A DNA stretch of 39,138 nt from a virus (Duplodnaviria > Heunggongvirae > Uroviricota > Caudoviricetes), in the IMG/VR virus record IMGVR_UViG_2541047828_000002, positions 1-39,138 of that record. One strand, given 5' to 3'. The notes below the pieces were generated by a model. It did no database searches and was not told where the DNA came from. It worked only from the letters and a program-made list of their open reading frames with translations. How positions within the stretch are numbered: position 1 is the stretch's first letter; each line of letters begins with the position of its first letter. The position numbers and the translations under genes are program-made. Of the stretch, positions 5,018 to 39,138 are shown one piece after another.

Positions 5018-5614
5018 TTAATGATTGTCGTGATAATTAATTGGCTCATCATTTTTTTTGTCTGGCATAGTTATGGACCACTTTATATTCTTTAGGCTGT
5101 TATGTTTTTTATTGACCTTAAGCTCTCTCTTTGCTTCAGAGATAATATCGTCTAGTAATACTTTTAATTTATCAAGTCTTGACTTGTGGGCATCTATCAA
5201 CTCTATACTATCAAACTCCCATTGTATAAATAGATTTTCTTCATTTTCAATGAATGAACGGATTTTATCCCCACACTCTTCTGTTAAGAATAATGAAGAT
5301 AGCTCACCTATTCTACTGAGTTTTTCAAGCTCATTAGAGAAAGATTTGCTAAGGATTTCATTTTCTTCTTTTGATTTGTAACTAAAGTAGGTTGGGAATT
5401 GTGAGGTGTGATGTAACTCCTGTTTATACCAATAGTCAGCTGTGTTTTTTAGAAGATAAACACAGTCAACTAATTGCGTATACAAATCTATTCTTTTGTC
5501 CCACCATTTTTCTTTATAATAACGGCCGAGTGCATATCGCGCAGTTAAGTAAGCTGCGATTGAGCCTGTAACAAGTCCGATAATTACCTTTGATATAAGG
5601 TCATGCCAATCCAT
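5018..5614 (-). CDS. hypothetical membrane-anchored protein (198 aa) in the immunity region
   Basis: Strongly AT-rich ORF MDWHDLISKVIIGLVTGSIAAYLTARYAL... with one N-terminal hydrophobic helix and a charged helical remainder. RBS AGGGA upstream. Flanked by hairpin terminators at 4991-5007 and 6074-6091. Confidence 0.6.
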   Translation of the reverse strand: MDWHDLISKVIIGLVTGSIAAYLTARYALGRYYKEKWWDKRIDLYTQLVDCVYLLKNTADYWYKQELHHTSQFPTYFSYKSKEENEILSKSFSNELEKLSRIGELSSLFLTEECGDKIRSFIENEENLFIQWEFDSIELIDAHKSRLDKLKVLLDDIISEAKRELKVNKKHNSLKNIKWSITMPDKKNDEPINYHDNH

Positions 5615-6103: not shown

Positions 6104-6778
6104 TTAGGCCTTTATTTTGTATCTTCTTGGTTTTCCCGAGAAAATCACAGTGCCAATTATAGAGCAATTACCGTTAATCTTAATGTAGGGCTCAGGCCAG
6201 TTTGGGTTTAATGCTTTGAGATAACGCTGTGTTCCATCTTCTATCAATCGCTTGAAGGTGGTTTCGCCTGTATCGTGCATCAACGCAATAACGTCGTCAC
6301 CGTGGCAAGCAGGGACTTCAGGATCAACAAAAATCATGTCTCCCGGACGGTACTCATCAATCATTGAATCACCAATCACCCGCAAGATATAAGTCATTTC
6401 GCCACAGGGTACAGGGCAGGGATAAGTTTCTGCTGTGCTCAAATCAACCTCAGAATAGCCAACTTCTTTCCATGCTCCGGCCTGTACCCATGATATGACA
6501 GGGACTAACGTTATTTGTTTGTTAGTGATTGAAACATCAGTTTTTTTTGTGATGTTCGTTGTCTGGTGTTCTTGATCGAGCCATCCGACAGGCAGGTCGA
6601 AACATTTTTCAATGTGTCGTGCCATGCTGTCACCGATATTTTTAGTAGCACCATCTCCCATAAACCTGCTGGTCTGGGTTGGCTCGCGATCAATCATAGT
6701 GGCAAAGGAAGAATTCCCGCCAACACCATCTCTCAGTTTTCTGGCGTTAGACCGCCGGATGTCATGGATTGTTTTCAT
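6104..6778 (-). CDS. CI-type prophage repressor (N-terminal DNA-binding domain plus S24 LexA-like autopeptidase domain)
   Basis: C-terminal VIGDSM (Ser nucleophile) and FKRL (Lys), with overall resemblance to the lambda cI C-terminal domain (VSGDSM...FKKL). Divergently oriented to a cro-like gene. Confidence 0.88.
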   Translation of the reverse strand: MKTIHDIRRSNARKLRDGVGGNSSFATMIDREPTQTSRFMGDGATKNIGDSMARHIEKCFDLPVGWLDQEHQTTNITKKTDVSITNKQITLVPVISWVQAGAWKEVGYSEVDLSTAETYPCPVPCGEMTYILRVIGDSMIDEYRPGDMIFVDPEVPACHGDDVIALMHDTGETTFKRLIEDGTQRYLKALNPNWPEPYIKINGNCSIIGTVIFSGKPRRYKIKA

Positions 6779-10417: not shown

Positions 10418-10803
10418 AGCTGATCTTGCCTTTCCCGCCCAGCGTGAACACGTACTGGCGACACCCCAACAAAGGGGCGTTTGCTGGTAAGAGTCTGATA
10501 AGCGCAGCGGGGCGCAAATTCCAGAGCGCGGCGTGCGCAGCAATAGTTGAGCAGTTACGTCGCCTGCCGAAACCAACGTCGGCACCTGCTTCAGTGGAGA
10601 TCGTGTTGTTTCCTCCGGATAACCGGATCCGCGATCTGGACAACTATAACAAGGCGCTGTTTGACGCCCTGACTCATGCGGGTGTGTGGGAAGACGACAG
10701 TCAGGTGAAAAGAATGCTGGTTGAGTGGGGACCGGTTATCCCGGGAGGGAAGGTCGAGATCACTATCAGTAAGTACGAGAAAACGGCGGGTGCAGCCGCC
10801 TGA
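10414..10803 (+). CDS. rusA: RusA-family Holliday junction resolvase
   Basis: LPFPPSVNTYWRH and RDLDNYNKALFDALTHAGVWEDDSQV match RusA signatures ([39 protein letters not shown]). Confidence 0.85.
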   Translation: MKLILPFPPSVNTYWRHPNKGAFAGKSLISAAGRKFQSAACAAIVEQLRRLPKPTSAPASVEIVLFPPDNRIRDLDNYNKALFDALTHAGVWEDDSQVKRMLVEWGPVIPGGKVEITISKYEKTAGAAA

Positions 10804-10822
10804 TCAAGAGGAGAAACGAAGT

Positions 10823-11620
10823 ATGAATAATCTGATGGTCATTGATGGTATTGAAGTTCGTCGTGATGCTTATGGGCGTTACAGCCTGAACGATCTGCAC
10901 AGGGCTGCCGGTTCTCTGGATAAGCATAAGCCTGCATTCTGGCTCCGCAATGAGCAAACTGAACGTTTAATAAGCGAGTTGCAGATTTGCAACTCGGTCA
11001 ATATAGAGCCAGTTAACGTTATTCGTGGCGGAAATAACCAGGGGACGTATGTCTGCAAAGAACTGGTGTATGCCTATGCAATGTGGATCAGCCCGTCATT
11101 CCATCTGAAGGTGATCCGTACTTTCGATATGGTAACCAGCGCATCGGAAAAATTATCCGGACAGGCTGCTGACAAGATGCAGGCTGGTGTGATTCTGCTG
11201 GACTTTATGCGCCGGGAATTAAACCTGTCTAACTCTTCAGTGCTTGGTGCCTGTCAGAAACTCCAGGAGGCTGTTGGCTTACCGAATCTGGCACCGCGCT
11301 ATGCCATTGATGCTCCTGCTGATGCACACGATGGCTCAAGTCGCCCGACACTGTCACTGAGTGCACTGCTGAAACAGTATGGTATACGCCTGACGGCTAA
11401 TCAGGCATATCACCAGATGGTGAAGCTGGGGATCGTCGAGCAGCGCGAACGATACAGCCGTACCGCGATTAACAACATCAAAAAATTCTGGTCGCTGACA
11501 GCGAAAGGCTGCATGTTCGGCAAGAACATCACCAGTCCCGCAAATCCGCGCGAGACGCAGCCGCATTTCTTCGAATCCCGATTCCCTGAGCTGTTAAAGC
11601 TGCTCGATACCGTTCATTGA
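10823..11620 (+). CDS. KilA-N domain protein (antirepressor-like)
   Basis: Start with RBS AGGAG. N-terminus MNNLMVIDGIEVRRDAYGRYSLNDLHRAAG...KPAFWLRNEQT is typical of KilA-N/Ant N-terminal domains. Confidence 0.6.
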   Translation: MNNLMVIDGIEVRRDAYGRYSLNDLHRAAGSLDKHKPAFWLRNEQTERLISELQICNSVNIEPVNVIRGGNNQGTYVCKELVYAYAMWISPSFHLKVIRTFDMVTSASEKLSGQAADKMQAGVILLDFMRRELNLSNSSVLGACQKLQEAVGLPNLAPRYAIDAPADAHDGSSRPTLSLSALLKQYGIRLTANQAYHQMVKLGIVEQRERYSRTAINNIKKFWSLTAKGCMFGKNITSPANPRETQPHFFESRFPELLKLLDTVH

Positions 11621-11621
11621 G

Positions 11622-12617
11622 GTGACCGTGAGAGCACTACTGACCCCTGAAATTGCCCCGCGTATGGGGATCGTATTGTTCAGGCCAGGTTCAGAGCTGA
11701 TGCCCCTGTTTATGCAGGGGCGTGTCCTGCTGGAGCCTGAGCCGGAGCGTTATTCATCTTTCGCCAGTGGTGCCGTTCCGGCGGCATCACAACCGCTGGC
11801 GGATGATCCTGCCGTTCGGGCCGTGTTCCGCAATGAGGCAGTGATCCGTCGTGCTGGTGGCGTGGAATGTCTTGAAAGCTGGTTACTTCGTGAAAAAGGC
11901 TGCCAGTGGCCTCATTCCAACTGGCACAGCGAGAACATGACTACAATGCGACACGCGCCTGGCGCAATCCGTCTGTGCTGGCACTGCGATAACCAACTGC
12001 GCGATCAGTTCACGGAACGGCTGGAATCAATGGCAACGGATAACTGTGCCCGCTGGGTGTTGTCTGTTGTGCGTCGGGATCTCGGTTTTGATGATAGTCA
12101 CGTTGTGACAATGCCGGAACTGTGCTGGTGGCTGGTTCGTAATGATCTGGCGGATGTCTTACCGGAAAGCGCAGCCCGTAAGGCACTGAGATTACCGAAG
12201 CCTGTTGTGCCGTCTGTCACCCGGGAAAGTGACCTTGTGCCTTCGGTTCCAGCCACCAGCATCATGCAGGATAAAGCGAAAAAGGTGCTGGCGCTGAAAG
12301 TGGAGCCGGAGTCGCCGGAGTCTTTTATGTTACGCCCCAAACGTCGCCGCTGGGTTAATGAAAAGTACACGCGCTGGGTTAAGACACAGCCGTGTGCATG
12401 TTGTGGAAAGCCTGCTGATGATCCCCACCACCTGATAGGCCACGGTCAGGGGGGAATGAGTACAAAAGCGCATGACCTCTTTGTGTTGCCTTTGTGCAGA
12501 AAGCATCACGACGAGCTGCATGCGGATACCGTGGCATTTGAAGAGAAGTATGGCTCCCAGCTGGAGCTGATATTTCGTTTTATCGACCGTGTGTTGGCAA
12601 TTGGTGTGCTAGCCTGA
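11622..12617 (+). CDS. DUF968-like protein with C-terminal HNH-like Cys/His motif
   Basis: GTG start. C-terminal CACCGKPADDPHHLIGHG...HDLFVLPLCRKHHDELH resembles a zinc-binding HNH-type motif found in prophage YdfU-like proteins. Confidence 0.5.
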   Translation: MTVRALLTPEIAPRMGIVLFRPGSELMPLFMQGRVLLEPEPERYSSFASGAVPAASQPLADDPAVRAVFRNEAVIRRAGGVECLESWLLREKGCQWPHSNWHSENMTTMRHAPGAIRLCWHCDNQLRDQFTERLESMATDNCARWVLSVVRRDLGFDDSHVVTMPELCWWLVRNDLADVLPESAARKALRLPKPVVPSVTRESDLVPSVPATSIMQDKAKKVLALKVEPESPESFMLRPKRRRWVNEKYTRWVKTQPCACCGKPADDPHHLIGHGQGGMSTKAHDLFVLPLCRKHHDELHADTVAFEEKYGSQLELIFRFIDRVLAIGVLA

Positions 12618-12634
12618 TTTGGTGGAGAAAGTTG

Positions 12635-13000
12635 ATGCGTGATATTCAGATGGTTCTGGAGCGTTGGGGGGCATGGGCGGCGAGTGATAGTTCAGGCGTT
12701 GATTATTCACCTATAGCCGCTGGGTTTAAGGGACTTCTTCCCTATACAAGCAAGAAACGCTTGGCTTGTTCGGATAGTGATGCCTTAATTATTGAAGGTT
12801 GTCTTGCTCGTCTAAAGCAAAAAAGGCCGGACGAACATTCGCTTCTTGTTGCCCATTACCTATACGGTATCTCTAAAAGAAAGCTCGCCAAGGCTCGTAA
12901 AAAAGATGAGAAATTGATACGTATAGAAATACAGCTAGCCGAAGGATTTATTGATGGCTGCCTTTCCATGCTAGATCTAACATTAGATTTGGACGTTTAA
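12635..13000 (+). CDS. late-gene antiterminator Q (short Q family)
   Basis: MRDIQMVLERWGAWAA...IAAGFKGLL... resembles the remembered short Q-type antiterminator family. RBS GGAG 7 nt upstream. Sits at the end of the early-right operon. Confidence 0.65.
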   Translation: MRDIQMVLERWGAWAASDSSGVDYSPIAAGFKGLLPYTSKKRLACSDSDALIIEGCLARLKQKRPDEHSLLVAHYLYGISKRKLAKARKKDEKLIRIEIQLAEGFIDGCLSMLDLTLDLDV

Positions 13001-13001
13001 T

Positions 13002-13026
13002 AATACGCCCCTGCATGGGGCGTATT
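13002..13026. terminator. bidirectional hairpin between convergent Q and KAP NTPase genes
   Basis: AATACGCCCC-TGCAT-GGGGCGTATT, a perfect 10-bp stem followed by TATTTACT on the plus strand. Lies between the Q stop (13000) and the KAP stop (13029). Confidence 0.6.
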
Positions 13027-13028
13027 AT

Positions 13029-14360
13029 TTACTGGATGAATGACATTTGATTAATATATTTTATCAATAACTCTCTGGGTGTAGTACTCCAAAAATTTAT
13101 GTGTTCATAATCAGTATAAACATTTGTGAATTTTTTAAGTTCTTCATCACTTTTAGGGGCAAATCGCTCATTAAGAGTAATACTGTCTTTAATTATTCCG
13201 AAGAATACAATGGATATTTCAGGGATTTGCGATCTTCTCTCATAAGAATAAGGTATTTCTTTTATGTTAAGCAGGTCTGCTAAATAAGATATAGATTCAG
13301 CGGTAATTTCTTGTTTTAGTTTTTCCTTGTTACCAAAGCAATGTATGAAGGCAGCTACGACAAAGATCATATTTATTAAAGGATCACTGCTTTTGTTCTC
13401 ATCGTCGTTTAACAGTTGAAAAATGTTAAGATTGCGTGAAAATGTTTGTGTTTCACGTAATGATAAGTTGGTTCGTTGAATTAAATCACGGATAAAGTAA
13501 CCTGATAATCTATTGATTTTATTCAATAACCTTGTTTTTTCTACAAGGTAATCCCAATATATAACAGAGGCTTTACATACGTTGTGACCATTTATCAAAC
13601 ATGTATCTGGAAGCGTGATGGTATATTTTATAAACTTGTCAAGATACTTTTGTGAGTTAATGCTATAACCATAAATATGATTTATAGATGCTTTTAATTG
13701 TTCTGTGTTTGTAACTAAAATAAAAAAGACATTATTGATGTCAAAAATGTGTTTTATTGTTTCAATGACATTTGTTGAAAAACTCGGCTTACATCGGTCT
13801 AATTCATCAATTATAATTACGATTTTTTGATTTTTTGATATGCTTTCGATGCAGGATTTAAGTGAATTTATGTTTTTCTCTGAGTCCATATGGTCTTCAA
13901 GCAAATTTTCAATAGTCCCATCTATTGCTGCATTGCTTGCTTTCTTCATCGCATCTTGGAATTCTTCGGCAACTTCACTAGCCTCCTGTCGTAAAAACCA
14001 ACCTGCACCAGCTTTTAGTACCGTTTTTAAACCAAAGCGAATTGCAGGAAGAGATCTCTTAATGAAGTGTTGTTTTTCTTCCTCAGGCAAAATGCTGGCA
14101 ATTGCAGAGGTTATGAGAAGTAATGGAGATTCTGCATGATCCCCTTTAAAGGCATCAATATAAACAACTTTAGATTCAGTTTCTTGCTCAATAATGAGAT
14201 TTTTCAGTTTGATACTAAATTCTGTTTTCCCTGTTCCCCATGCGCCGTCTATTACCAGTGGTGAAATGTCTGCCTCTGGTTTTAGCAACTTGATGATATT
14301 TTCAGCGATGTTTCTTCGTTGGAACTCGTCACGTTCAGTGAAAGATAGTGTATCTAACAT
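13029..14360 (-). CDS. KAP-family P-loop NTPase (PifA-like), candidate abortive-infection/defence protein
   Basis: 443-aa AT-rich ORF on the opposite strand to the phage backbone. Walker A VIDGAWGTGKTEF and Walker B-like KIVIIIDELDRCKP are hallmarks of KAP NTPases. RBS AGGAG upstream. Confidence 0.85.
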   Translation of the reverse strand: MLDTLSFTERDEFQRRNIAENIIKLLKPEADISPLVIDGAWGTGKTEFSIKLKNLIIEQETESKVVYIDAFKGDHAESPLLLITSAIASILPEEEKQHFIKRSLPAIRFGLKTVLKAGAGWFLRQEASEVAEEFQDAMKKASNAAIDGTIENLLEDHMDSEKNINSLKSCIESISKNQKIVIIIDELDRCKPSFSTNVIETIKHIFDINNVFFILVTNTEQLKASINHIYGYSINSQKYLDKFIKYTITLPDTCLINGHNVCKASVIYWDYLVEKTRLLNKINRLSGYFIRDLIQRTNLSLRETQTFSRNLNIFQLLNDDENKSSDPLINMIFVVAAFIHCFGNKEKLKQEITAESISYLADLLNIKEIPYSYERRSQIPEISIVFFGIIKDSITLNERFAPKSDEELKKFTNVYTDYEHINFWSTTPRELLIKYINQMSFIQ

Positions 14361-14484
14361 AATATAAACCTATTAACTCCTACAGTAAAAAACGAATAAT
14401 ACGACTTTGGGATTAAAAATCATTAACGCGGTCCGCAAAAATTCTTGTAATCTGTTAAGAGTGGTTACTTCGCCACACAGCTTA

Positions 14485-14515
14485 AACCCGCCGTCGAGCG
14501 GGTTTTGTCGTTTCT
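14485..14515 (+). terminator. tR'-like intrinsic terminator in the putative late promoter/qut region
   Basis: AACCCGC-CGTCGA-GCGGGTT hairpin followed by TTGTCGTTTCTG. Lies upstream of the holin gene, as the lambda PR'-tR' unit does. Confidence 0.5.
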
Positions 14516-14657
14516 GGGCTTTGGTATTCGTTGGGCTTGGTCTATCTAGCTCTTATCCATTGGCTCGGCTTCTTTTACGTTTCCGCTTCTGATTTGCGGT
14601 TCGTGGTACTCCCTCAATTTGCACCTCTTGTATCGGCGAGGTGAGAGATAACTACAA

Positions 14658-14984
14658 ATGCCTCATAACCCAAATACCTGGCTGGAGTTGGTCCAGAGCT
14701 GGTGGCGTGGAGACACACCGCTGGGCGCAGTGATTATGTCGATTGTTATGGCTGGTTTACGTATCGCCTATTTTGGCGGTGGTGGCGGTTGGAAGCGAAA
14801 AACACTCGAAATTCTACTCTGTGGCGCTCTGACGCTGACTTTTGCATCCGCTCTTGAGTATGTCGGATGGCCTAAATCACTATCTGTTGCCATTGGTGGT
14901 GGGGGGGGGCTGATCGGTGTCGATGCTATTCGTGGGGCTGCAATGCGAGTAATCGGTAACAAATTTGGTGGCTCTAAGGAGTAA
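14658..14984 (+). CDS. holin (lambda S-like size and topology)
   Basis: 108-aa product with hydrophobic segments and a charged C-terminus, immediately upstream of the endolysin. Contains two oligo-Gly runs, one encoded by a G9 tract. Confidence 0.7.
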   Translation: MPHNPNTWLELVQSWWRGDTPLGAVIMSIVMAGLRIAYFGGGGGWKRKTLEILLCGALTLTFASALEYVGWPKSLSVAIGGGGGLIGVDAIRGAAMRVIGNKFGGSKE

Positions 14985-14987
14985 TTT

Positions 14988-15464
14988 ATGCAGGTACTAA
15001 ATTCCCAGCGTAAAGCTTTCCTGGATATGGTGGCATGGTCAGAAGGAACGGATAACGGGCGACAACCGACACGTAACCACGGTTATGACGTTATTGTTGG
15101 TGGTGAACTGTTTACTGATTACTCCGATCATCCTCACAAACTTGTCACGCTAAACCCGAAACTTAAATCAACAGCTGCCGGACGTTATCAGCTTCTTTCC
15201 CGTTGGTGGGATGCTTACCGTAAACAGCTTGGTTTGAAAGACTTCTCCCCCAAAAGCCAGGACGCTGTGGCATTGCAGCAGATTAAAGAGCGTGGCGCTT
15301 TACCGATGATTGATCGCGGTGATATCCGTCAGGCAATCGACCGTTGCAGCAATATCTGGGCTTCACTGCCGGGCGCTGGTTACGGTCAGTATGAACATAA
15401 AATCGGTGACCTGATTGCCCGATTTAAAGAGGCTGGTGGGGTGGTAAATGAAGTTGAGCTATAA
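14988..15464 (+). CDS. R: endolysin, lambda R-type lytic transglycosylase
   Basis: NSQRKAFLDMVAWSEGTDNGRQPTRNHGYDVIVGGELFTDYSDHPHKLVTLNPKLKS... is near-identical to remembered lambda R. RBS AAGGAG. Confidence 0.92.
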   Translation: MQVLNSQRKAFLDMVAWSEGTDNGRQPTRNHGYDVIVGGELFTDYSDHPHKLVTLNPKLKSTAAGRYQLLSRWWDAYRKQLGLKDFSPKSQDAVALQQIKERGALPMIDRGDIRQAIDRCSNIWASLPGAGYGQYEHKIGDLIARFKEAGGVVNEVEL

Positions 15465-15915
15465 GTTGGTTATCGCTGCTTTCTTCGTTACTGTCATTGG
15501 TTCTTTTATCTTTTCAGCGAATCATTACCACAATAAAGCCATTGAATACAAAAAGCAGCGCGACGAAAACGCAATGGCATTAGATTCGGCTATGGCGACG
15601 CTCTCTGATATGCAGAAGCGTCAACGTGACGTAGCAGAACTTGACGCCAGATATACAAAGGAGCTTGCTGATGCTAACGCGACTATCGAAAGTCTCCGTG
15701 CTGATGTTTCTGCTGGCCGTAAGTGGCTGCGCGTCAAAGCAGTCTGTCCCGACATGCATAAAATCACCGCCGCCTCCGGCGTGGATGATGGCTCCAGCCC
15801 CAGACTTACTGACACCGCTCAACGGGATTATTTCGTTCTCAGAGAGCGCATTGAAACCATAACTAACCAATTGAATGGCCTGCAAGAGTATGTGAGATCA
15901 CAGTGTTCATATTAG
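15448..15915 (+). CDS. Rz: Rz i-spanin
   Basis: N-terminal transmembrane segment. RQRDVAELDARYTKELADA...ASGVDDGSSPRLTDTAQRDYFVLRER resembles lambda Rz. Overlaps the R 3' end. Confidence 0.85.
   Translation: MKLSYKLVIAAFFVTVIGSFIFSANHYHNKAIEYKKQRDENAMALDSAMATLSDMQKRQRDVAELDARYTKELADANATIESLRADVSAGRKWLRVKAVCPDMHKITAASGVDDGSSPRLTDTAQRDYFVLRERIETITNQLNGLQEYVRSQCSY
15671..15862 (+). CDS. Rz1: Rz1 o-spanin lipoprotein, embedded in the +1 frame of Rz
   Basis: Lipobox LLAVSGC, then proline-rich SKQSVPTCIKSPPPPAWMMAPAPDLLTPLNGII, similar to lambda Rz1. Start taken at the internal Met. Confidence 0.75.
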   Translation: MLTRLSKVSVLMFLLAVSGCASKQSVPTCIKSPPPPAWMMAPAPDLLTPLNGIISFSESALKP

Positions 15916-15953
15916 AAAAGTCTTACCATAAGATTTTTGTATATGGATGCATT

Positions 15954-16328
15954 ATGTCTCAATACGCGCGTGCTGCTTTAATTGCTTATTATTTGGTTGC
16001 TGATAATTCATTATCCCCTCGTGATGCATGGGAGGCTGCTGTCGCTGAGGTTACAGAAAGCGAATCGGCAAGAAAGAAAGGATGCCCAAGGGCAACGTTT
16101 CTCGCTCTGACGGATAGCGGTTATCTGAAGAATGTAAAACCACAGCATGGGGAGAGAAAGGTCGGTAAGTTGTACCAAAGGGCAATTGAAGTTGCGAATC
16201 TGATTCTTGATTTGCCCGGAATCAGCAAAGCTGAGTTAGTTGATAAAACTTGCTATAAAGACAGGCAAGGGTCTTATGACATTGTTCTGACACTCGCTCA
16301 GTACGGATTTCTTCAACGTCCTCAGTAA
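15954..16328 (+). CDS. hypothetical protein (124 aa)
   Basis: ORF after the lysis cassette, followed by a hairpin terminator. Start uncertain (alternative ATG at 15903). No family recognised. Confidence 0.45.
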   Translation: MSQYARAALIAYYLVADNSLSPRDAWEAAVAEVTESESARKKGCPRATFLALTDSGYLKNVKPQHGERKVGKLYQRAIEVANLILDLPGISKAELVDKTCYKDRQGSYDIVLTLAQYGFLQRPQ

Positions 16329-16345
16329 GATATCAAGTGATTTAT

Positions 16346-16370
16346 GGCCTCGCTTTTAGCGGGGCTTTTT
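16346..16370 (+). terminator. intrinsic terminator
   Basis: GGCCTCGC-TTTTA-GCGGGGCT hairpin with G-U pairs, followed by TTTTT. Confidence 0.55.
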
Positions 16371-16519
16371 CACATCTGAATTTCACTGCGCACCCCACGC
16401 GCACATTATCACCCGAGCCTTTCAGAAAGTTGAGCCTGAGAACTGCCGTATATGGTGGCGACCATCTCGGGGCGGCTTTTCTGTGGGGCAGGCTCAATTT
16501 TCTAAAAGGTAAAAGCGCT

Positions 16520-17017
16520 ATGAAAGCAATCACGCTTTTTAATACACCGATCCGTGTTGATGAATCAGGAATGATCTGCCTCACTGACATGTGGAAAGCT
16601 AGTGGTAAAAGTGAATCTGAATCGCCGTACCACTACCTGCGAAACAAGCAGACCAAAGAGTTCTTGGCTGAGCTGGAGAAAAACCACGAATCTGTGGTTT
16701 TTACGGAACGCGGTGTGCACGGTGGAACTTATGGAGGAAAGTTCGTTGCTTATGATTACGCAGCATGGCTAAACCCTGAATTTAAATATGCAGCCTATAA
16801 AGTCCTCGATGACTACTTCACCGGAGAGCTTCAGCATCGCAGCAGCTTAAGTGCACAGCTCAATATGAAGTGTCACGAGTTTGATCAGAAGAAAGATATG
16901 GCGAGCTTTTGCGGGCAGGGACTGGCTGCTTGGCGTTACACCAAGCCAGTTCTGATGGCTGAAATTAGTAACCTGGCTACCCAGCTGCAGCTCACAATAC
17001 CCGGGCTGCATTCATAA
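16520..17017 (+). CDS. KilA-N domain protein
   Basis: MKAITLFNTPIRVDESGMICLTDMWKASGK...YHYLRNKQTKEFL is a KilA-N-like N-terminus. ATG 16520 follows AAGG. Confidence 0.6.
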   Translation: MKAITLFNTPIRVDESGMICLTDMWKASGKSESESPYHYLRNKQTKEFLAELEKNHESVVFTERGVHGGTYGGKFVAYDYAAWLNPEFKYAAYKVLDDYFTGELQHRSSLSAQLNMKCHEFDQKKDMASFCGQGLAAWRYTKPVLMAEISNLATQLQLTIPGLHS

Positions 17018-17290
17018 GCGCTCGAATCAATATGCCTACCACACCGCTCGTGTGCGGATGAACAGTGTCAGCTCATGTAAGACAGCAGATTGTTCAACCA
17101 TATGTGGAAGTGTTCCAATATCCAATTTGCGCAAAGCTTTATTATCATCTTAAGTAAGATATTGATTATCAGATTGATTAAATAATCTTTTTTCATAGTC
17201 CCTCTTCAATATTCAGTTTTAATGGAGGGAAGAATGCGGAGTTTGTGATTTGCGTTGTAGACAGAGAAGAGTTAAACGAGTCGATTTCTC

Positions 17291-29585: not shown

Positions 29586-30032
29586 TTACTGTGCGAACAC
29601 GCAATTTCGGCCTGATGGGGAGCCGACAATTCTGGACATTTTTTCGCAAATAACAGTTACCTGTTCTCCTTTTTTAAGAGCAGCAGCTGTTGATTTTTCA
29701 GAGTCTTGCATCTCCATTCTTGCTGGCATGAATTCATTTTCAGTTCTGAATTTAATAATTATAGAGTCAGTAAAGTCCTTATCAATGGATTGTACGATAC
29801 CTCTAACGGCGATTAATTTACCTTTTAACTGTTCATCGGTAGCGACTTCATTTTCTTCATACTCTTTAAACAGCTGTCGAGCAGTAGTGTTGTAGATTTC
29901 TTTTTGCGGTGCCGCAGCTTCCGTATCGGATGAGTATGAAGAATTAGAGCCTTTATCGTTATTGCCTGCAAAATATCCAATAATCACCAACCCGATGAAA
30001 ATATATAAAATCCATTTTAATAATTTCTTCAT
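29586..30032 (-). CDS. exported/membrane-anchored OB-fold protein (tRNA_anti-like family)
   Basis: AT-rich 148-aa ORF on the opposite strand. N-terminal hydrophobic anchor MKKLLKWILYIFIGLVIIGYFAG. Then ARQLFKEYEENEVATDEQLKGKLIAVRGIVQSIDKD...KKGEQVTVICEKM, which matches the remembered signature of the tRNA_anti-like OB-fold family. Confidence 0.6.
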   Translation of the reverse strand: MKKLLKWILYIFIGLVIIGYFAGNNDKGSNSSYSSDTEAAAPQKEIYNTTARQLFKEYEENEVATDEQLKGKLIAVRGIVQSIDKDFTDSIIIKFRTENEFMPARMEMQDSEKSTAAALKKGEQVTVICEKMSRIVGSPSGRNCVFAQ

Positions 30033-36746: not shown

Positions 36747-37814
36747 TTAATGAAATTTATCTCGGATGAATTGTTGCGATGGCTTTTCAATGAATATATA
36801 TGACATATAGCTAATTGCCATTAATGTAAGCATGAATAAAATGAATACCTTGGGGCTGTAAAAAAGATCGCGTCCATAGCCAATCTTGTCAGCTAAATAA
36901 ACAACAATGATTTGCAAAGGAAAATGTAAAAGATAAGATGAATAACTGATATCACCCAACCATTCAATTTTCTTCCCAAAATCGTTTCGTATTGCGCTAA
37001 TTGATACAAGGAAAAAGATTATGGAGGTAAATCCGAATAAGATAATTGAGAATATATCTGCTACTTGCAGGGTAAAGATAACTCCCCATGAGATCAATAG
37101 AAAAACACAAGCAAAAATAAAAAATAATTTTGCGCTAATATTTTTTATGACCGCAATCGTAATTTTATAGGTCAGACCACCAATAAAGAAAGAGAATGCG
37201 CCGATCATTATGGGATTGTTAATTTTGAAAAAGTAGTACGACAATGCAACTATTAAAATTGATATGAATGTTGTTTTTGATGTGAACTTGCATAATATAA
37301 AAAATATCATGTACATAAGTACTTCAATCGACACGGACCATGTCGGGGCGTTGAAGGACCAACCTCGCTCAAATCCCCATGATTGAATCATCAATAAATT
37401 CAGAATGGCATGGTAAATGTCATTCATAGGATAAACAAAAAAATAATTATGACTTTTAAAGAAAATAATTTGTAATATTGCCACGACAGCAAATGTAAAT
37501 ATATAAAGTGGATATAATCTACTGACACGGTTAACTATAAAAGTTTTTGCTGAGGTTTTATTGCTGTGTATATTGTCAGCGTATAGATAAAAAAATATGA
37601 ATCCAGAAATCATAAAAAACAATTCGACAGCATATAAACCGTAATGATAAAAAACGGAAAAAAATTCATAAAAAGGTTGGCGGTTTATGATTATGTCAGA
37701 TGCAGCATTCTTTTTCATAAAAAAATGTTGCCAATGCCATAACACAACGGAAAGTGCGGCAAATCCTCTCAGAACATCCAGGGTATATATTCTCTTCCCA
37801 AAAAAATTCGTCAC
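36747..37814 (-). CDS. acyltransferase family 3 integral membrane protein (O-antigen acetyltransferase-like)
   Basis: 355-aa, very AT-rich ORF with about 10 hydrophobic segments. N-terminus LDVLRGFAALSVVLWHW is the characteristic acyltransferase_3 start. GTG start with RBS AAGAGG. Confidence 0.8.
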   Translation of the reverse strand: MTNFFGKRIYTLDVLRGFAALSVVLWHWQHFFMKKNAASDIIINRQPFYEFFSVFYHYGLYAVELFFMISGFIFFYLYADNIHSNKTSAKTFIVNRVSRLYPLYIFTFAVVAILQIIFFKSHNYFFVYPMNDIYHAILNLLMIQSWGFERGWSFNAPTWSVSIEVLMYMIFFILCKFTSKTTFISILIVALSYYFFKINNPIMIGAFSFFIGGLTYKITIAVIKNISAKLFFIFACVFLLISWGVIFTLQVADIFSIILFGFTSIIFFLVSISAIRNDFGKKIEWLGDISYSSYLLHFPLQIIVVYLADKIGYGRDLFYSPKVFILFMLTLMAISYMSYIFIEKPSQQFIRDKFH

Positions 37815-38364
37815 AACGAACCTCTTTTAATAAAGTCAAGTGATAATGAAAGATAAATATTGTAAACGAAAAAACACTGGACTGGAACATATATCTCTGC
37901 TTGTAATTTACCCAAGATAATTTTACTAACGCAGTCATAATTCGTTCATGTATACCAGATGAAAGTACATGTTCTATGAAATAGGGTTTTGCCTGGAGTT
38001 TGAAGGTTTTTAACGATTATACCTGTTTAATCGACTCCCCATGTTTTTTGACATTATCCACCGCACACGATACTGGATGCCAGGTAAACTGATTTGCTGG
38101 CATAAAGTCACTGAGAATTTTTTACCAACAATATCTTGCCACATCTTTTCCCGCACAGTTTCGGCAATAGAATCAGCGGGCAGCGGTCATCAATATTCAC
38201 CAGACATTGATCTGCCGCACTATCTGACCGGTGTCCTGCTGAGAATACTAATTTCTTTTTTTGCAAGTGCTGTCCAATCATGATTGGGGGGGGGCGGCGG
38301 AGTTGAAACCGCAGGTACGTTGTATGCAATAACGTGCTGCGGTTTAATCTTATCAATTGAATAC

Positions 38365-39138
<774 letters not shown>

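Follow-up and report, generated by a model that had tools for sequence, protein, structure and literature searches.

A KAP-family P-loop NTPase of the PDC-S20 family as exchangeable cargo of a lambdoid prophage and candidate for anti-phage defence

Introduction

KAP-family P-loop NTPases are tied by experiment to anti-phage defence in several unrelated lineages, namely PifA, EF_KAP, a group of gut-metagenome fusions, and Reve. In this report, we examine another member of this family, a protein of 443 amino acids (aa) encoded by a lambdoid prophage of Escherichia coli (IMG/VR virus record IMGVR_UViG_2541047828_000002); the whole stretch of DNA that was analysed, 39,138 nt in length, is called the window throughout. 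It is probable, though far from assured, that the gene in question (the KAP gene) protects against phages by means of a single protein; it belongs to the PDC-S20 family of candidates and is carried by the prophage as exchangeable cargo between the antiterminator gene Q and the late promoter. That an intact KAP ATPase lies in a defence hotspot is the secure part of this conclusion; all that goes past it we infer.

PifA, which is encoded by the F plasmid and excludes phage T7, is thought to sense phage proteins (T7 gp1.2 or gp10) and to collapse the membrane or the energy state. Transmembrane helices in or beside the P-loop domain are typical of many KAP proteins but are not obligatory, and PifA has none. 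EF_KAP, from Enterococcus, and three KAP fusions from gut metagenomes defend experimentally, with Walker B being required; EF_KAP protects equally at low and high multiplicity of infection, and its authors conclude that it is not abortive (PLoS Biol 2026 e3003991; bioRxiv 10.1101/2025.10.07.681051). Reve, a one-gene system that has ATPase and KAP P-loop domains, resides in a P4-satellite hotspot and confers strong protection against several phage families; it was picked from loci that neither DefenseFinder nor PADLOC 2.0.0 had flagged (NAR 2026, gkag898). The family to which we assign the present protein stems from a set of 145 "phage defence candidates" (PDC), the members of which were found embedded in BREX, DISARM or type I restriction-modification (RM) loci and are explicitly untested (Payne et al., bioRxiv 10.1101/2024.01.29.577857).

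Results

A complete KAP NTPase of a catalogued family

The 443-aa reading frame and the two Walker motifs of its product lie on the minus strand exactly where a preliminary description, made from the letters of the window alone, had placed them (Table 1). The assignment to the KAP family made there is borne out by profile search: residues 15-317 cover positions 1-292 of the 293 in the Pfam KAP_NTPase profile (PF07693; E 9.4e-71, 238.9 bits against a cut-off of 20), and because the profile is covered nearly whole, a chance reading frame is excluded. Further, the PADLOC PDC-S20 model PDLC04956 is matched end to end (E 4.5e-177; residues 3-442 against model positions 4-449 of 450), and the other three models of this family, PDLC04959, PDLC04957 and PDLC04958, are matched with E-values of 7.8e-52 to 3.2e-29. 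The protein is contained in PHROG 8614, which has no assigned function, and the gene bears the RefSeq label "KAP family NTPase" in 50 of 5,426 complete E. coli genomes. It had been presented as undescribed, a description that these catalogues contradict. Judged by its sequence, the protein is a member of PDC-S20; the gene is thus already on record, although only as an untested prediction.

The PADLOC model of PifA was matched in part (E 6.3e-18; residues 7-252 against model positions 13-255 of 720). No match to the RdrA or Tmn models was returned by PADLOC at an E-value of 1 or below, and its PD-T4, PD-T7 and PD-Lambda models gave no match. The functional selection of Vassallo et al. makes no mention of KAP, NTPase or P-loop, and none of its PD systems is evidently of this family. 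A sequence search of the Protein Data Bank (PDB), made with the single protein and with a profile of 54 sequences, found nothing (best E-value 0.47). Domain searches revealed no DNA-binding or regulator-like domain in the KAP protein, and no nuclease, TIR, protease or pore domain is present.

Three specific identities were considered and rejected. QatA fails on score (34.4 bits against an NCBIfam cut-off of 600), the PADLOC QatA model is matched by residues 138-256 only, and no Qat genes (QatB, QatC, QatD) are found nearby. The RdrA protein of RADAR was set aside on account of its size, twice that of the KAP protein, the lack of a PADLOC or PDB-profile sequence match, and the absence of RdrB: no such adenosine deaminase lies beside the KAP gene, whose neighbours are Q and the holin gene. 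Tmn, a YobI-family transmembrane NTPase, was dismissed for want of a transmembrane helix and of a model match.

An exchangeable cargo slot between Q and the late promoter

A "cargo-deleted" query, in which positions 11001-13000 were fused to 14424-16400, was searched against E. coli genomes. It recovered prophages that share the RusA-KilA-N-DUF968-Q left flank and the holin-lysozyme right flank of the window and hold other genes between them. The presence/absence survey thereby upholds the earlier suggestion that the gene is an accessory insertion and not part of the phage backbone. Pairwise comparison with three of these (the TIR-TM, Kiwa and SDH-protease loci) and with phage cdtI placed the left breakpoint at 12976-13003 and the right one at 14415-14426. 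Homology stops and resumes at these points, and we therefore draw the limits of the cassette at approximately 13004 and 14415. The cassette comprises the hairpin described below, the KAP gene and a short 5' leader. Its foreign base composition, also claimed at the outset, is plain: the GC content of the gene is 0.329 against 0.503 for the window, and its 500-bp bins are among the window's lowest.

The alternative occupants include the complete two-gene Kiwa system and a TIR-TM protein. With its flanks conserved, its content variable and known defence systems among its occupants, the slot has the marks of a defence hotspot. Phage cdtI carries two unannotated genes there, and a fourth prophage a Clp-fold serine protease of the SDH family; by their location, these are candidates for further defence genes. 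At each of the five loci examined, the KAP locus among them, the cargo runs antisense to the early-right operon, on the opposite strand. Further occupants, known from annotation only, are TIGR04255 and DUF6731 proteins, DNA methyltransferases, an "ATP-binding protein", and OmpC-like porins. A search for direct repeats on either side of the cassette turned up nothing beyond short, chance-level matches, and its boundaries thus show no sign of being transposon-like or att-like. In all, 3,873 genomes contain matches to parts of the Q-to-holin stretch, far more than hold the KAP gene. The limited literature that we searched does not describe the Q-to-late-promoter slot as a defence hotspot.

Two recurrent contexts and a single-gene unit

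The complete E. coli genomes hold 53 copies of the KAP gene, all of them chromosomal and 95.6-100% identical at the nucleotide level; in strains XH988 and W619, the sequence is identical to that of the window. A database clustered at 90% contains 2,189 relatives, concentrated in the Enterobacterales, and clustering at 50% yields 3,430 clusters at an E-value of 1e-30 or better; nearly all of the best 150 of these are full-length, at ~435-470 aa. Two genomic contexts recur. In type A, the gene is convergent on a Q gene of the PF06530 type beside DUF968, upstream of varied lysis cassettes; examples come from E. coli, Citrobacter (65% identity) and Cronobacter (~43-44% identity). In type B, it lies between the cI repressor and integrase genes of 186/P2-like prophages and on their strand, as in three E. 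coli paralogue clusters (43-44% identity), Serratia and Yersinia. In IMG/VR, a scan located relatives on 398 viral contigs. We read the context at 80 of these loci, one of which ends at a contig edge, and each of the 79 informative ones conforms to one of the two types (51 type A, 28 type B); the type A count includes L062, which was scored separately by script and in which Q starts 64 nt past the KAP gene.

Within E. coli, the Q-side neighbours of the KAP gene stay constant and the lysis side varies, and in Citrobacter the alignment is unbroken from DUF968 across Q and the KAP gene as far as the promoter block, with ~70% nucleotide identity. These facts indicate that the gene travels with the Q module. 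No neighbour is common to both contexts, and the E. coli cI-int loci hold the KAP gene alone in that position. The gene is therefore a single-gene unit, as had been proposed. Serratia and Yersinia 186-like prophages have an extra open reading frame (ORF) of 160-169 aa with no Pfam match between cI and the KAP gene (L019/L020 6461-6970; L021/L022 6494-6976); the E. coli loci lack it, and it may be either separate cargo or a partner specific to that lineage.

The cI-int position lies within a lysogenic operon and is comparable to that of rexAB, which adjoins cI in phage lambda. The E. coli paralogues P0101, P0102 and P0110 sit in 186/P2-like prophages and not in P4 satellites. Embedding in BREX, DISARM or type I RM loci was seen in none of the ~100 loci examined, a sample drawn from prophage and viral contexts. 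Among plasmids, only three records contain a relative with coverage of at least 80%; some 680 others are PifA-like, matching in the NTPase half alone at ~25% identity. Deposited phage genomes contain no close homologue, the best true phage match being 26% identical, and the family is thus known mainly from prophages and metagenomic viral contigs.

Two side observations concern the prophages that carry relatives of the KAP gene. In the 186/P2-like prophages with KAP paralogues (L006-L008 and L012, first ~1 kb), the slot beyond DinI and the replication gene gpA also varies, its occupants including an AAA_13 ATPase, AIPR, HEPN_LA2681 and GmrSD, in agreement with the known defence hotspot of P2. 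The Citrobacter prophage with the 65% identical orthologue contains, at 12240-17258 of locus L004, a colicin-domain gene, a gene for a GIY-YIG protein, and a SLATT_5 and reverse-transcriptase pair that resembles a retron or DRT-like defence module.

The contexts also bear on the strongest competing explanation, which is that the protein, although an accessory ATPase, serves some purpose besides defence against phages: it might exclude or control other mobile elements (plasmids, satellites, co-resident prophages), or modulate the prophage's own lysogeny, induction or late switch. The gene stays by the same type of Q (PF06530) and DUF968 from E. coli to Cronobacter, at 43-100% identity; in Citrobacter the Q gene, the KAP gene and the late promoter region have remained contiguous; and both of its positions, beside Q and beside cI and int, are regulatory hubs. 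Further, it has been noted in the literature that phage exclusion may not be the primary function of PifA itself. On the other hand, this Q also operates in prophages that lack the KAP gene or whose cargo is wholly different, and that cargo includes established defence systems. Types A and B occur in unrelated phage lineages that differ in their regulators, and this speaks against a partnership with any particular regulator. The protein also lacks a DNA-binding or regulator-like domain. We regard this explanation as unlikely, and as the most probable of the rivals. Rather, the slot shared with Kiwa and TIR-TM, the second home beside cI, the foreign GC content and the gene's own terminator together point to an accessory gene that benefits the lysogen, most probably against phages.

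Purifying selection on an intact gene

Comparison of E. coli alleles gave a dN/dS of ~0.24, which signifies purifying selection. There is not a single nonsynonymous change in residues 1-92, and all translated alleles preserve the whole ORF. In the C-terminal domain, the ratio rises (0.67 and 0.28, from small counts); this hints at relaxed or diversifying selection there, although the counts are too small for a claim.

Signals for expression are less distinct. The ribosome-binding site credited to the gene is weakly supported, consisting of AGG 8 nt and GGAG 16 nt upstream of the ATG. A scan of the region for sigma-70 promoters found no confident one (8 promoter-like sites, where chance alone would give 6.6); on the minus strand, the single site close by ends at the ATG itself. 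For these reasons, we claim no promoter for the KAP gene.

These poor signals and the IS903B insertion found in the KAP neighbourhood of one genome are what might be expected of inert or decaying cargo that merely hitch-hikes with the prophage. Such a fate is quite improbable in light of the purifying selection and the unbroken alleles, and also of catalytic motifs that are invariant across genera and a length that is conserved among the best clusters.

A soluble NTPase with a variable C-terminal domain

The Walker A motif, GAWGTGKT (residues 39-46; G39, K45, T46), and the Walker B motif, IIIDELDR (residues 182-189; D185, E186, L187, D188, R189), which is followed by C190, are invariant across 54 homologues from different genera. 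Column entropy is 0.8-1.2 bits in the NTPase core, rises to ~2.5 bits at residues 261-300, and reaches 2.5-2.8 bits in the C-terminal residues 318-443. An AlphaFold model built with the 54 homologues has a pLDDT of 81.5 and a pTM of 0.78, with pLDDT below 50 in two loops (113-127 and 142-157). Structure comparison reveals a fold common to replication initiators and loaders such as Orc/Cdc6, DnaA and TnsC. According to the model, this fold is that of the ring-forming or switch ATPases of RADAR, BREX and STAND immunity.

A check for a membrane insertion in the P-loop domain, suggested in the preliminary description, gave a negative answer: no transmembrane segment is apparent, as the highest mean Kyte-Doolittle hydropathy over 19 residues is 1.53 and that segment lies outside the insert. 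We therefore place the protein in the soluble KAP subgroup, like PifA. The insert between the Walker motifs (residues 93-177), which contains both low-confidence loops and is modelled as soluble helices, occupies the place of the transmembrane hairpin in canonical KAP proteins. It holds a strongly conserved segment, LPAIRFGLKTVLKAGAGW, and P105, A106, K116 and L123 are invariant among the 54 homologues; loop 113-127 is rich in invariant residues yet has low model confidence. Residues 99-117, which overlap the start of this segment, are cationic and amphipathic (net charge +4 to +5; hydrophobic moment 0.56-0.58, exceeding the protein's own 95th percentile).

The anatomy speaks to a link that had been drawn to PifA. 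At the level of the family, it holds. That the protein is an orthologue acting as PifA does on the F plasmid, sensing T7 gp1.2 or the capsid protein and causing membrane leakage, is by contrast scarcely credible. The two do share a family, the partial match to the PADLOC model, and the lack of a transmembrane helix. However, that match is confined to the NTPase half; PifA's C-terminal half of ~470 residues is missing from the KAP protein; the divergent C-terminal domain in which specificity would be expected has no counterpart in PifA; the PifA-like genes of plasmids resemble the KAP gene in the NTPase half only; and the context is a prophage, not the pif operon. Orthology is refuted by coverage and architecture, and because the homology is restricted to the N-terminal half, the PifA phenotype is not transferable to the KAP protein.

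Flanks of the cassette and the putative late promoter

On the left, DUF968/HNH and KilA-N genes precede Q. Where the stop codons of Q and the KAP gene face each other lies a hairpin with perfect 13-nt arms (12999-13011 and 13017-13029), which folds with -22.1 kcal/mol on the plus strand (z -4.8) and -20.8 kcal/mol on the minus strand (z -5.6); none of 200 shuffled sequences was as stable. With a stable fold on both strands, "bidirectional terminator-like" is a fair term for it. The hairpin had been noted at 13002-13026; it is real and bidirectional, but slightly wider than that.

On the right, the cassette gives way to a block conserved in all six loci aligned (the window, L002, L009, L010, L011 and L016), including those of Citrobacter and Cronobacter; the cassette to its left is not conserved. 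Its elements are, in order, an A-rich upstream tract, TTAACG (14423-14428), a 17-nt spacer, TGTAAT (14446-14451), the conserved TAAGAGTGGTTAC, and a terminator-like hairpin (14484-14505). Within the spacer, CGCGGTCCGCA (14427-14437) is almost invariant in E. coli, Citrobacter and Cronobacter prophages with this type of Q, apart from a one-base deletion at the Kiwa locus L010. Matches to phages SfII, SfIV and Stx2 phages, at 89-93%, start at ~14415-14424. Late promoters of lambdoid phages have a Q-binding element between -35 and -10, a promoter-proximal pause element, and a downstream terminator. By analogy with this layout, the block may be read as the pR' and Q-utilisation (qut) region of this type of Q, with CGCGGTCCGCA as a candidate Q-binding element for the PF06530 family. 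The placement of the gene between Q and the late promoter, as first described, agrees with this reading. If it is correct, the cassette lies between Q and Q's site of action, outside the late transcript.

This arrangement and the presence/absence survey argue against the proposal that the gene encodes an essential or core ATPase of the late region or lytic cycle, concerned with packaging, replication or lysis timing, which was also the condition under which the defence reading had been expected to fall: the gene does lie directly before the late promoter and lysis genes, and its fold is shared with replication initiators and loaders, but it is opposite in strand to the late operon and upstream of the conserved promoter block, is present in so few of the genomes that match parts of the Q-to-holin stretch, is foreign in GC content and without a close homologue in deposited phages, and is replaced by unrelated genes in sister prophages with identical flanks, so that a core role is effectively refuted and has only the slightest probability.

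Table 1. Features of the KAP locus and occupants of the equivalent slot in related prophages. Coordinates refer to the window, except for the slot cargo, where they refer to the locus named.
Feature	Coordinates	Strand	Description
KAP-family P-loop NTPase gene	13029..14360	-	443 aa, ATG start; member of PADLOC PDC-S20 and PHROG 8614
Variable cargo cassette, ~1.41 kb	13004..14415	.	Hairpin, KAP gene and short 5' leader; pairwise breakpoints; GC 0.33 vs 0.50
Cassette-specific 5' leader of KAP gene	14361..14415	-	Weak Shine-Dalgarno, weak promoter-like hexamers only; read from sequence
NTPase domain, residues 15-317	13410..14318	-	Sensor-1-like N218; conserved R189, R302, R309
Walker A, residues 39-46	14223-14246	-	Within NTPase domain
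Walker B (DELDR), residues 181-189	13794-13820	-	Within NTPase domain
Helical insert between Walker A and Walker B, residues 93-177	13830..14084	-	Modelled as soluble helices
Variable all-helical C-terminal domain, residues 318-443	13032..13409	-	Proposed specificity or sensor module
Antiterminator Q gene (PF06530 type)	12632..13000	+	Conserved left flank; KAP gene convergent on it; Pfam Phage_antitermQ E 1.8e-52; PHROG 79
Bidirectional intrinsic-terminator-like hairpin	12999..13029	.	Between stop codons of Q and KAP gene; GC core, flanking A-tract and T-tract
Putative pR'-like late promoter and qut region	~14416..14506	+	Conserved right flank; kept in all six aligned loci
Lysis cassette	14658..15915	+	Lambda-family holin 14658-14984 (Phage_holin_3_1 E 2.4e-23), lysozyme 14988-15464, Rz 15448-15915 (Phage_lysis E 1.4e-42); RefSeq gene names under identical matches
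Slot cargo, L009: TIR-domain protein		opposite	PADLOC "TIR-TM" E 1.7e-57
Slot cargo, L010: two-gene cassette, complete Kiwa		opposite	PADLOC KwaA E 1.9e-83, KwaB E 2.3e-150
Slot cargo, L011: SDH-family Clp-fold serine protease, 331 aa	2702-3697	opposite	No PADLOC match
Slot cargo, phage cdtI (L001): unannotated orf53/orf54, 147 and 313 aa	3422-4810	opposite	No PADLOC match

Other features of the prophage

Downstream of Rz are genes for a DUF6979 protein (15903-16328) and a KilA-N protein with an ORF11CD3 domain (16337-17017); the latter is the second KilA-N gene, in addition to that at 10721-11620. The left end of the window is host DNA, with a fragment of an aldehyde dehydrogenase gene (1-1254), followed by tRNA-Thr(CGT) (1369-1444) and a tyrosine integrase gene on the minus strand (1459-2622). 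As these adjoin, the prophage appears to be integrated at the tRNA-Thr gene. An Rfam scan of the window found the tRNA alone, with no known RNA in the Q-holin interval.

Three other regions stand out. An AT-rich minus-strand ORF of 198 aa (5018-5614; GC ~0.32; no Pfam or PADLOC match) lies between the early-left genes and the S24 repressor gene (6104-6778), a position that in lambdoid phages often holds accessory genes expressed in the lysogen. A second minus-strand ORF, of 148 aa (29586-30032; GC ~0.41; no PADLOC match), encodes a tRNA_anti-like OB-fold (E 2.9e-19) opposite the tail and structural genes and looks like another inserted accessory gene. At the AT-rich right end (36747-39138, minus strand, GC 0.31-0.33) are genes for a 355-aa Acyl_transf_3 protein and then a GIY-YIG (LEM-3-like) protein (38365-39138); the former resembles O-antigen acetyltransferases and could be a lysogenic-conversion gene.

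Discussion

If the KAP gene acts in defence, the following course of events may be envisaged. The lysogen would make the protein at a low level from the gene's own weak signals. By sequence and model, this protein is a soluble KAP/RdrA-like ATPase with an intact catalytic site. The pattern of variability suggests that the fast-diverging C-terminal helical domain, which is small and has no enzymatic features, together with the variable residues 261-300, would recognise a protein of the infecting phage. Recognition could then switch the ATPase to an oligomeric, ring-like active state, as the similarity of its fold to RdrA and other AAA+/STAND-type switches suggests. With neither a nuclease nor a TIR, protease or pore domain in the protein, either the NTPase itself or the conserved cationic amphipathic insert must supply the output. 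The outcome that we favour, if by little, is a PifA-like collapse of energy or membrane that would abort infection; the main alternative is an ATP-driven sequestration or remodelling of the phage target that leaves the cell alive. Within defence, we give an abortive and a non-abortive outcome about equal weight. The abortive infection that had been proposed is thus one possible mechanism but is not established, and EF_KAP is reported to be non-abortive.

Several considerations weigh against a defensive role. The linkage to one type of Q is tight and ancient, extending down to 43% protein identity, and could reflect a function tied to that phage module. The name "PDC-S20" occurs in the main text of none of the papers searched, nor is it listed in the parts of the supplements of the PADLOC-candidate paper (Payne et al.) that were available to us; no infection phenotype has been published for members of this family. 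Two other PDC candidates showed no activity when tested in a native host. Expression in the lysogen is a presumption, given a weak Shine-Dalgarno sequence and no convincing promoter. Finally, the Foldseek TM-scores to RdrA are modest (0.37-0.46), and oligomerisation is suggested by similarity of fold alone.

A bolder version of the defensive reading may also be considered, one that we hold to be rather doubtful and somewhat less probable even than a non-defensive accessory role. According to it, an effector-less, soluble, partnerless KAP ATPase of 443 aa would be a complete immune system with the NTPase as its weapon, acting either by trigger-activated nucleotide depletion or by membrane attack through the cationic insert, which would have replaced the ancestral transmembrane hairpin. 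The slot would serve as a defence "socket" with antisense self-silencing: with cargo that is always antisense, read-through during the prophage's own induction would silence the defence, providing self-immunity by transcriptional interference.

In sum, the KAP gene is, as the preliminary description had it, a defence candidate, and it is a strong one in a genuine hotspot, but it is neither undescribed nor specifically PifA-like. The PDC-S20 family occurs across the Enterobacterales and is almost always borne by prophages. Were the protein active, it would be among the smallest KAP-type defence proteins and would provide the first phenotype for its family. Because it has no recognisable effector domain, it would be a clean system in which to learn how a bare sensor-ATPase stops a phage. 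Further, a compact slot in a common lambdoid lineage of E. coli exchanges Kiwa, TIR-TM, KAP and unannotated genes, and could be mined for defence genes as the hotspots of P2 and P4 were. Current ideas are extended by these observations, and none is overturned.

How does this locus compare with described systems? To the PDC-S20 family it is related by the end-to-end match and by being a single-gene unit. However, the PDC candidates were recognised by their location within BREX, DISARM or type I RM loci, whereas here the gene is prophage cargo in the Q-to-late-promoter slot; in the literature, we found neither this context nor the cI-int context of the paralogues described for PDC-S20. PifA is likewise a soluble KAP P-loop NTPase carried by a mobile element, but it is larger (>700 aa against 443), has a different C-terminal domain, and is encoded by a plasmid instead of a prophage. 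With RdrA of RADAR (PDB 8fnt, 8fnu, 8hr8), the KAP protein appears to share a fold, according to its model. RdrA, at ~800-850 aa, works with the deaminase RdrB, whereas the KAP protein is half that size and has no partner gene.

EF_KAP and the gut-metagenome fusions are also single-gene KAP NTPases with a C-terminal region of unknown fold. EF_KAP differs in its transmembrane helices, its C-terminal region of 322 aa, its origin in Firmicutes and its linkage to serine recombinases; the KAP protein is free of transmembrane helices and extends only ~125 aa past the NTPase domain. Reve is likewise a single-gene KAP system in a hotspot of an E. coli mobile element. It is probably of a different lineage, as it was not flagged by PADLOC 2.0.0 and the KAP protein is flagged by PADLOC-DB 2.0.0.

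Temperate phages provide precedent for cargo of this kind, in the hotspots of P2 and P4, in rexAB of phage lambda, and in morons such as stx and phage porins, which are inserted between Q and the lysis genes. The present slot resembles these in its conserved flanks, sharp breakpoints, foreign GC content and own terminator, and in its alternation with Kiwa and TIR-TM. It differs from them in its cargo, antisense to the early-right operon at all five loci, and in lying upstream of the putative late promoter block, outside the late transcript.

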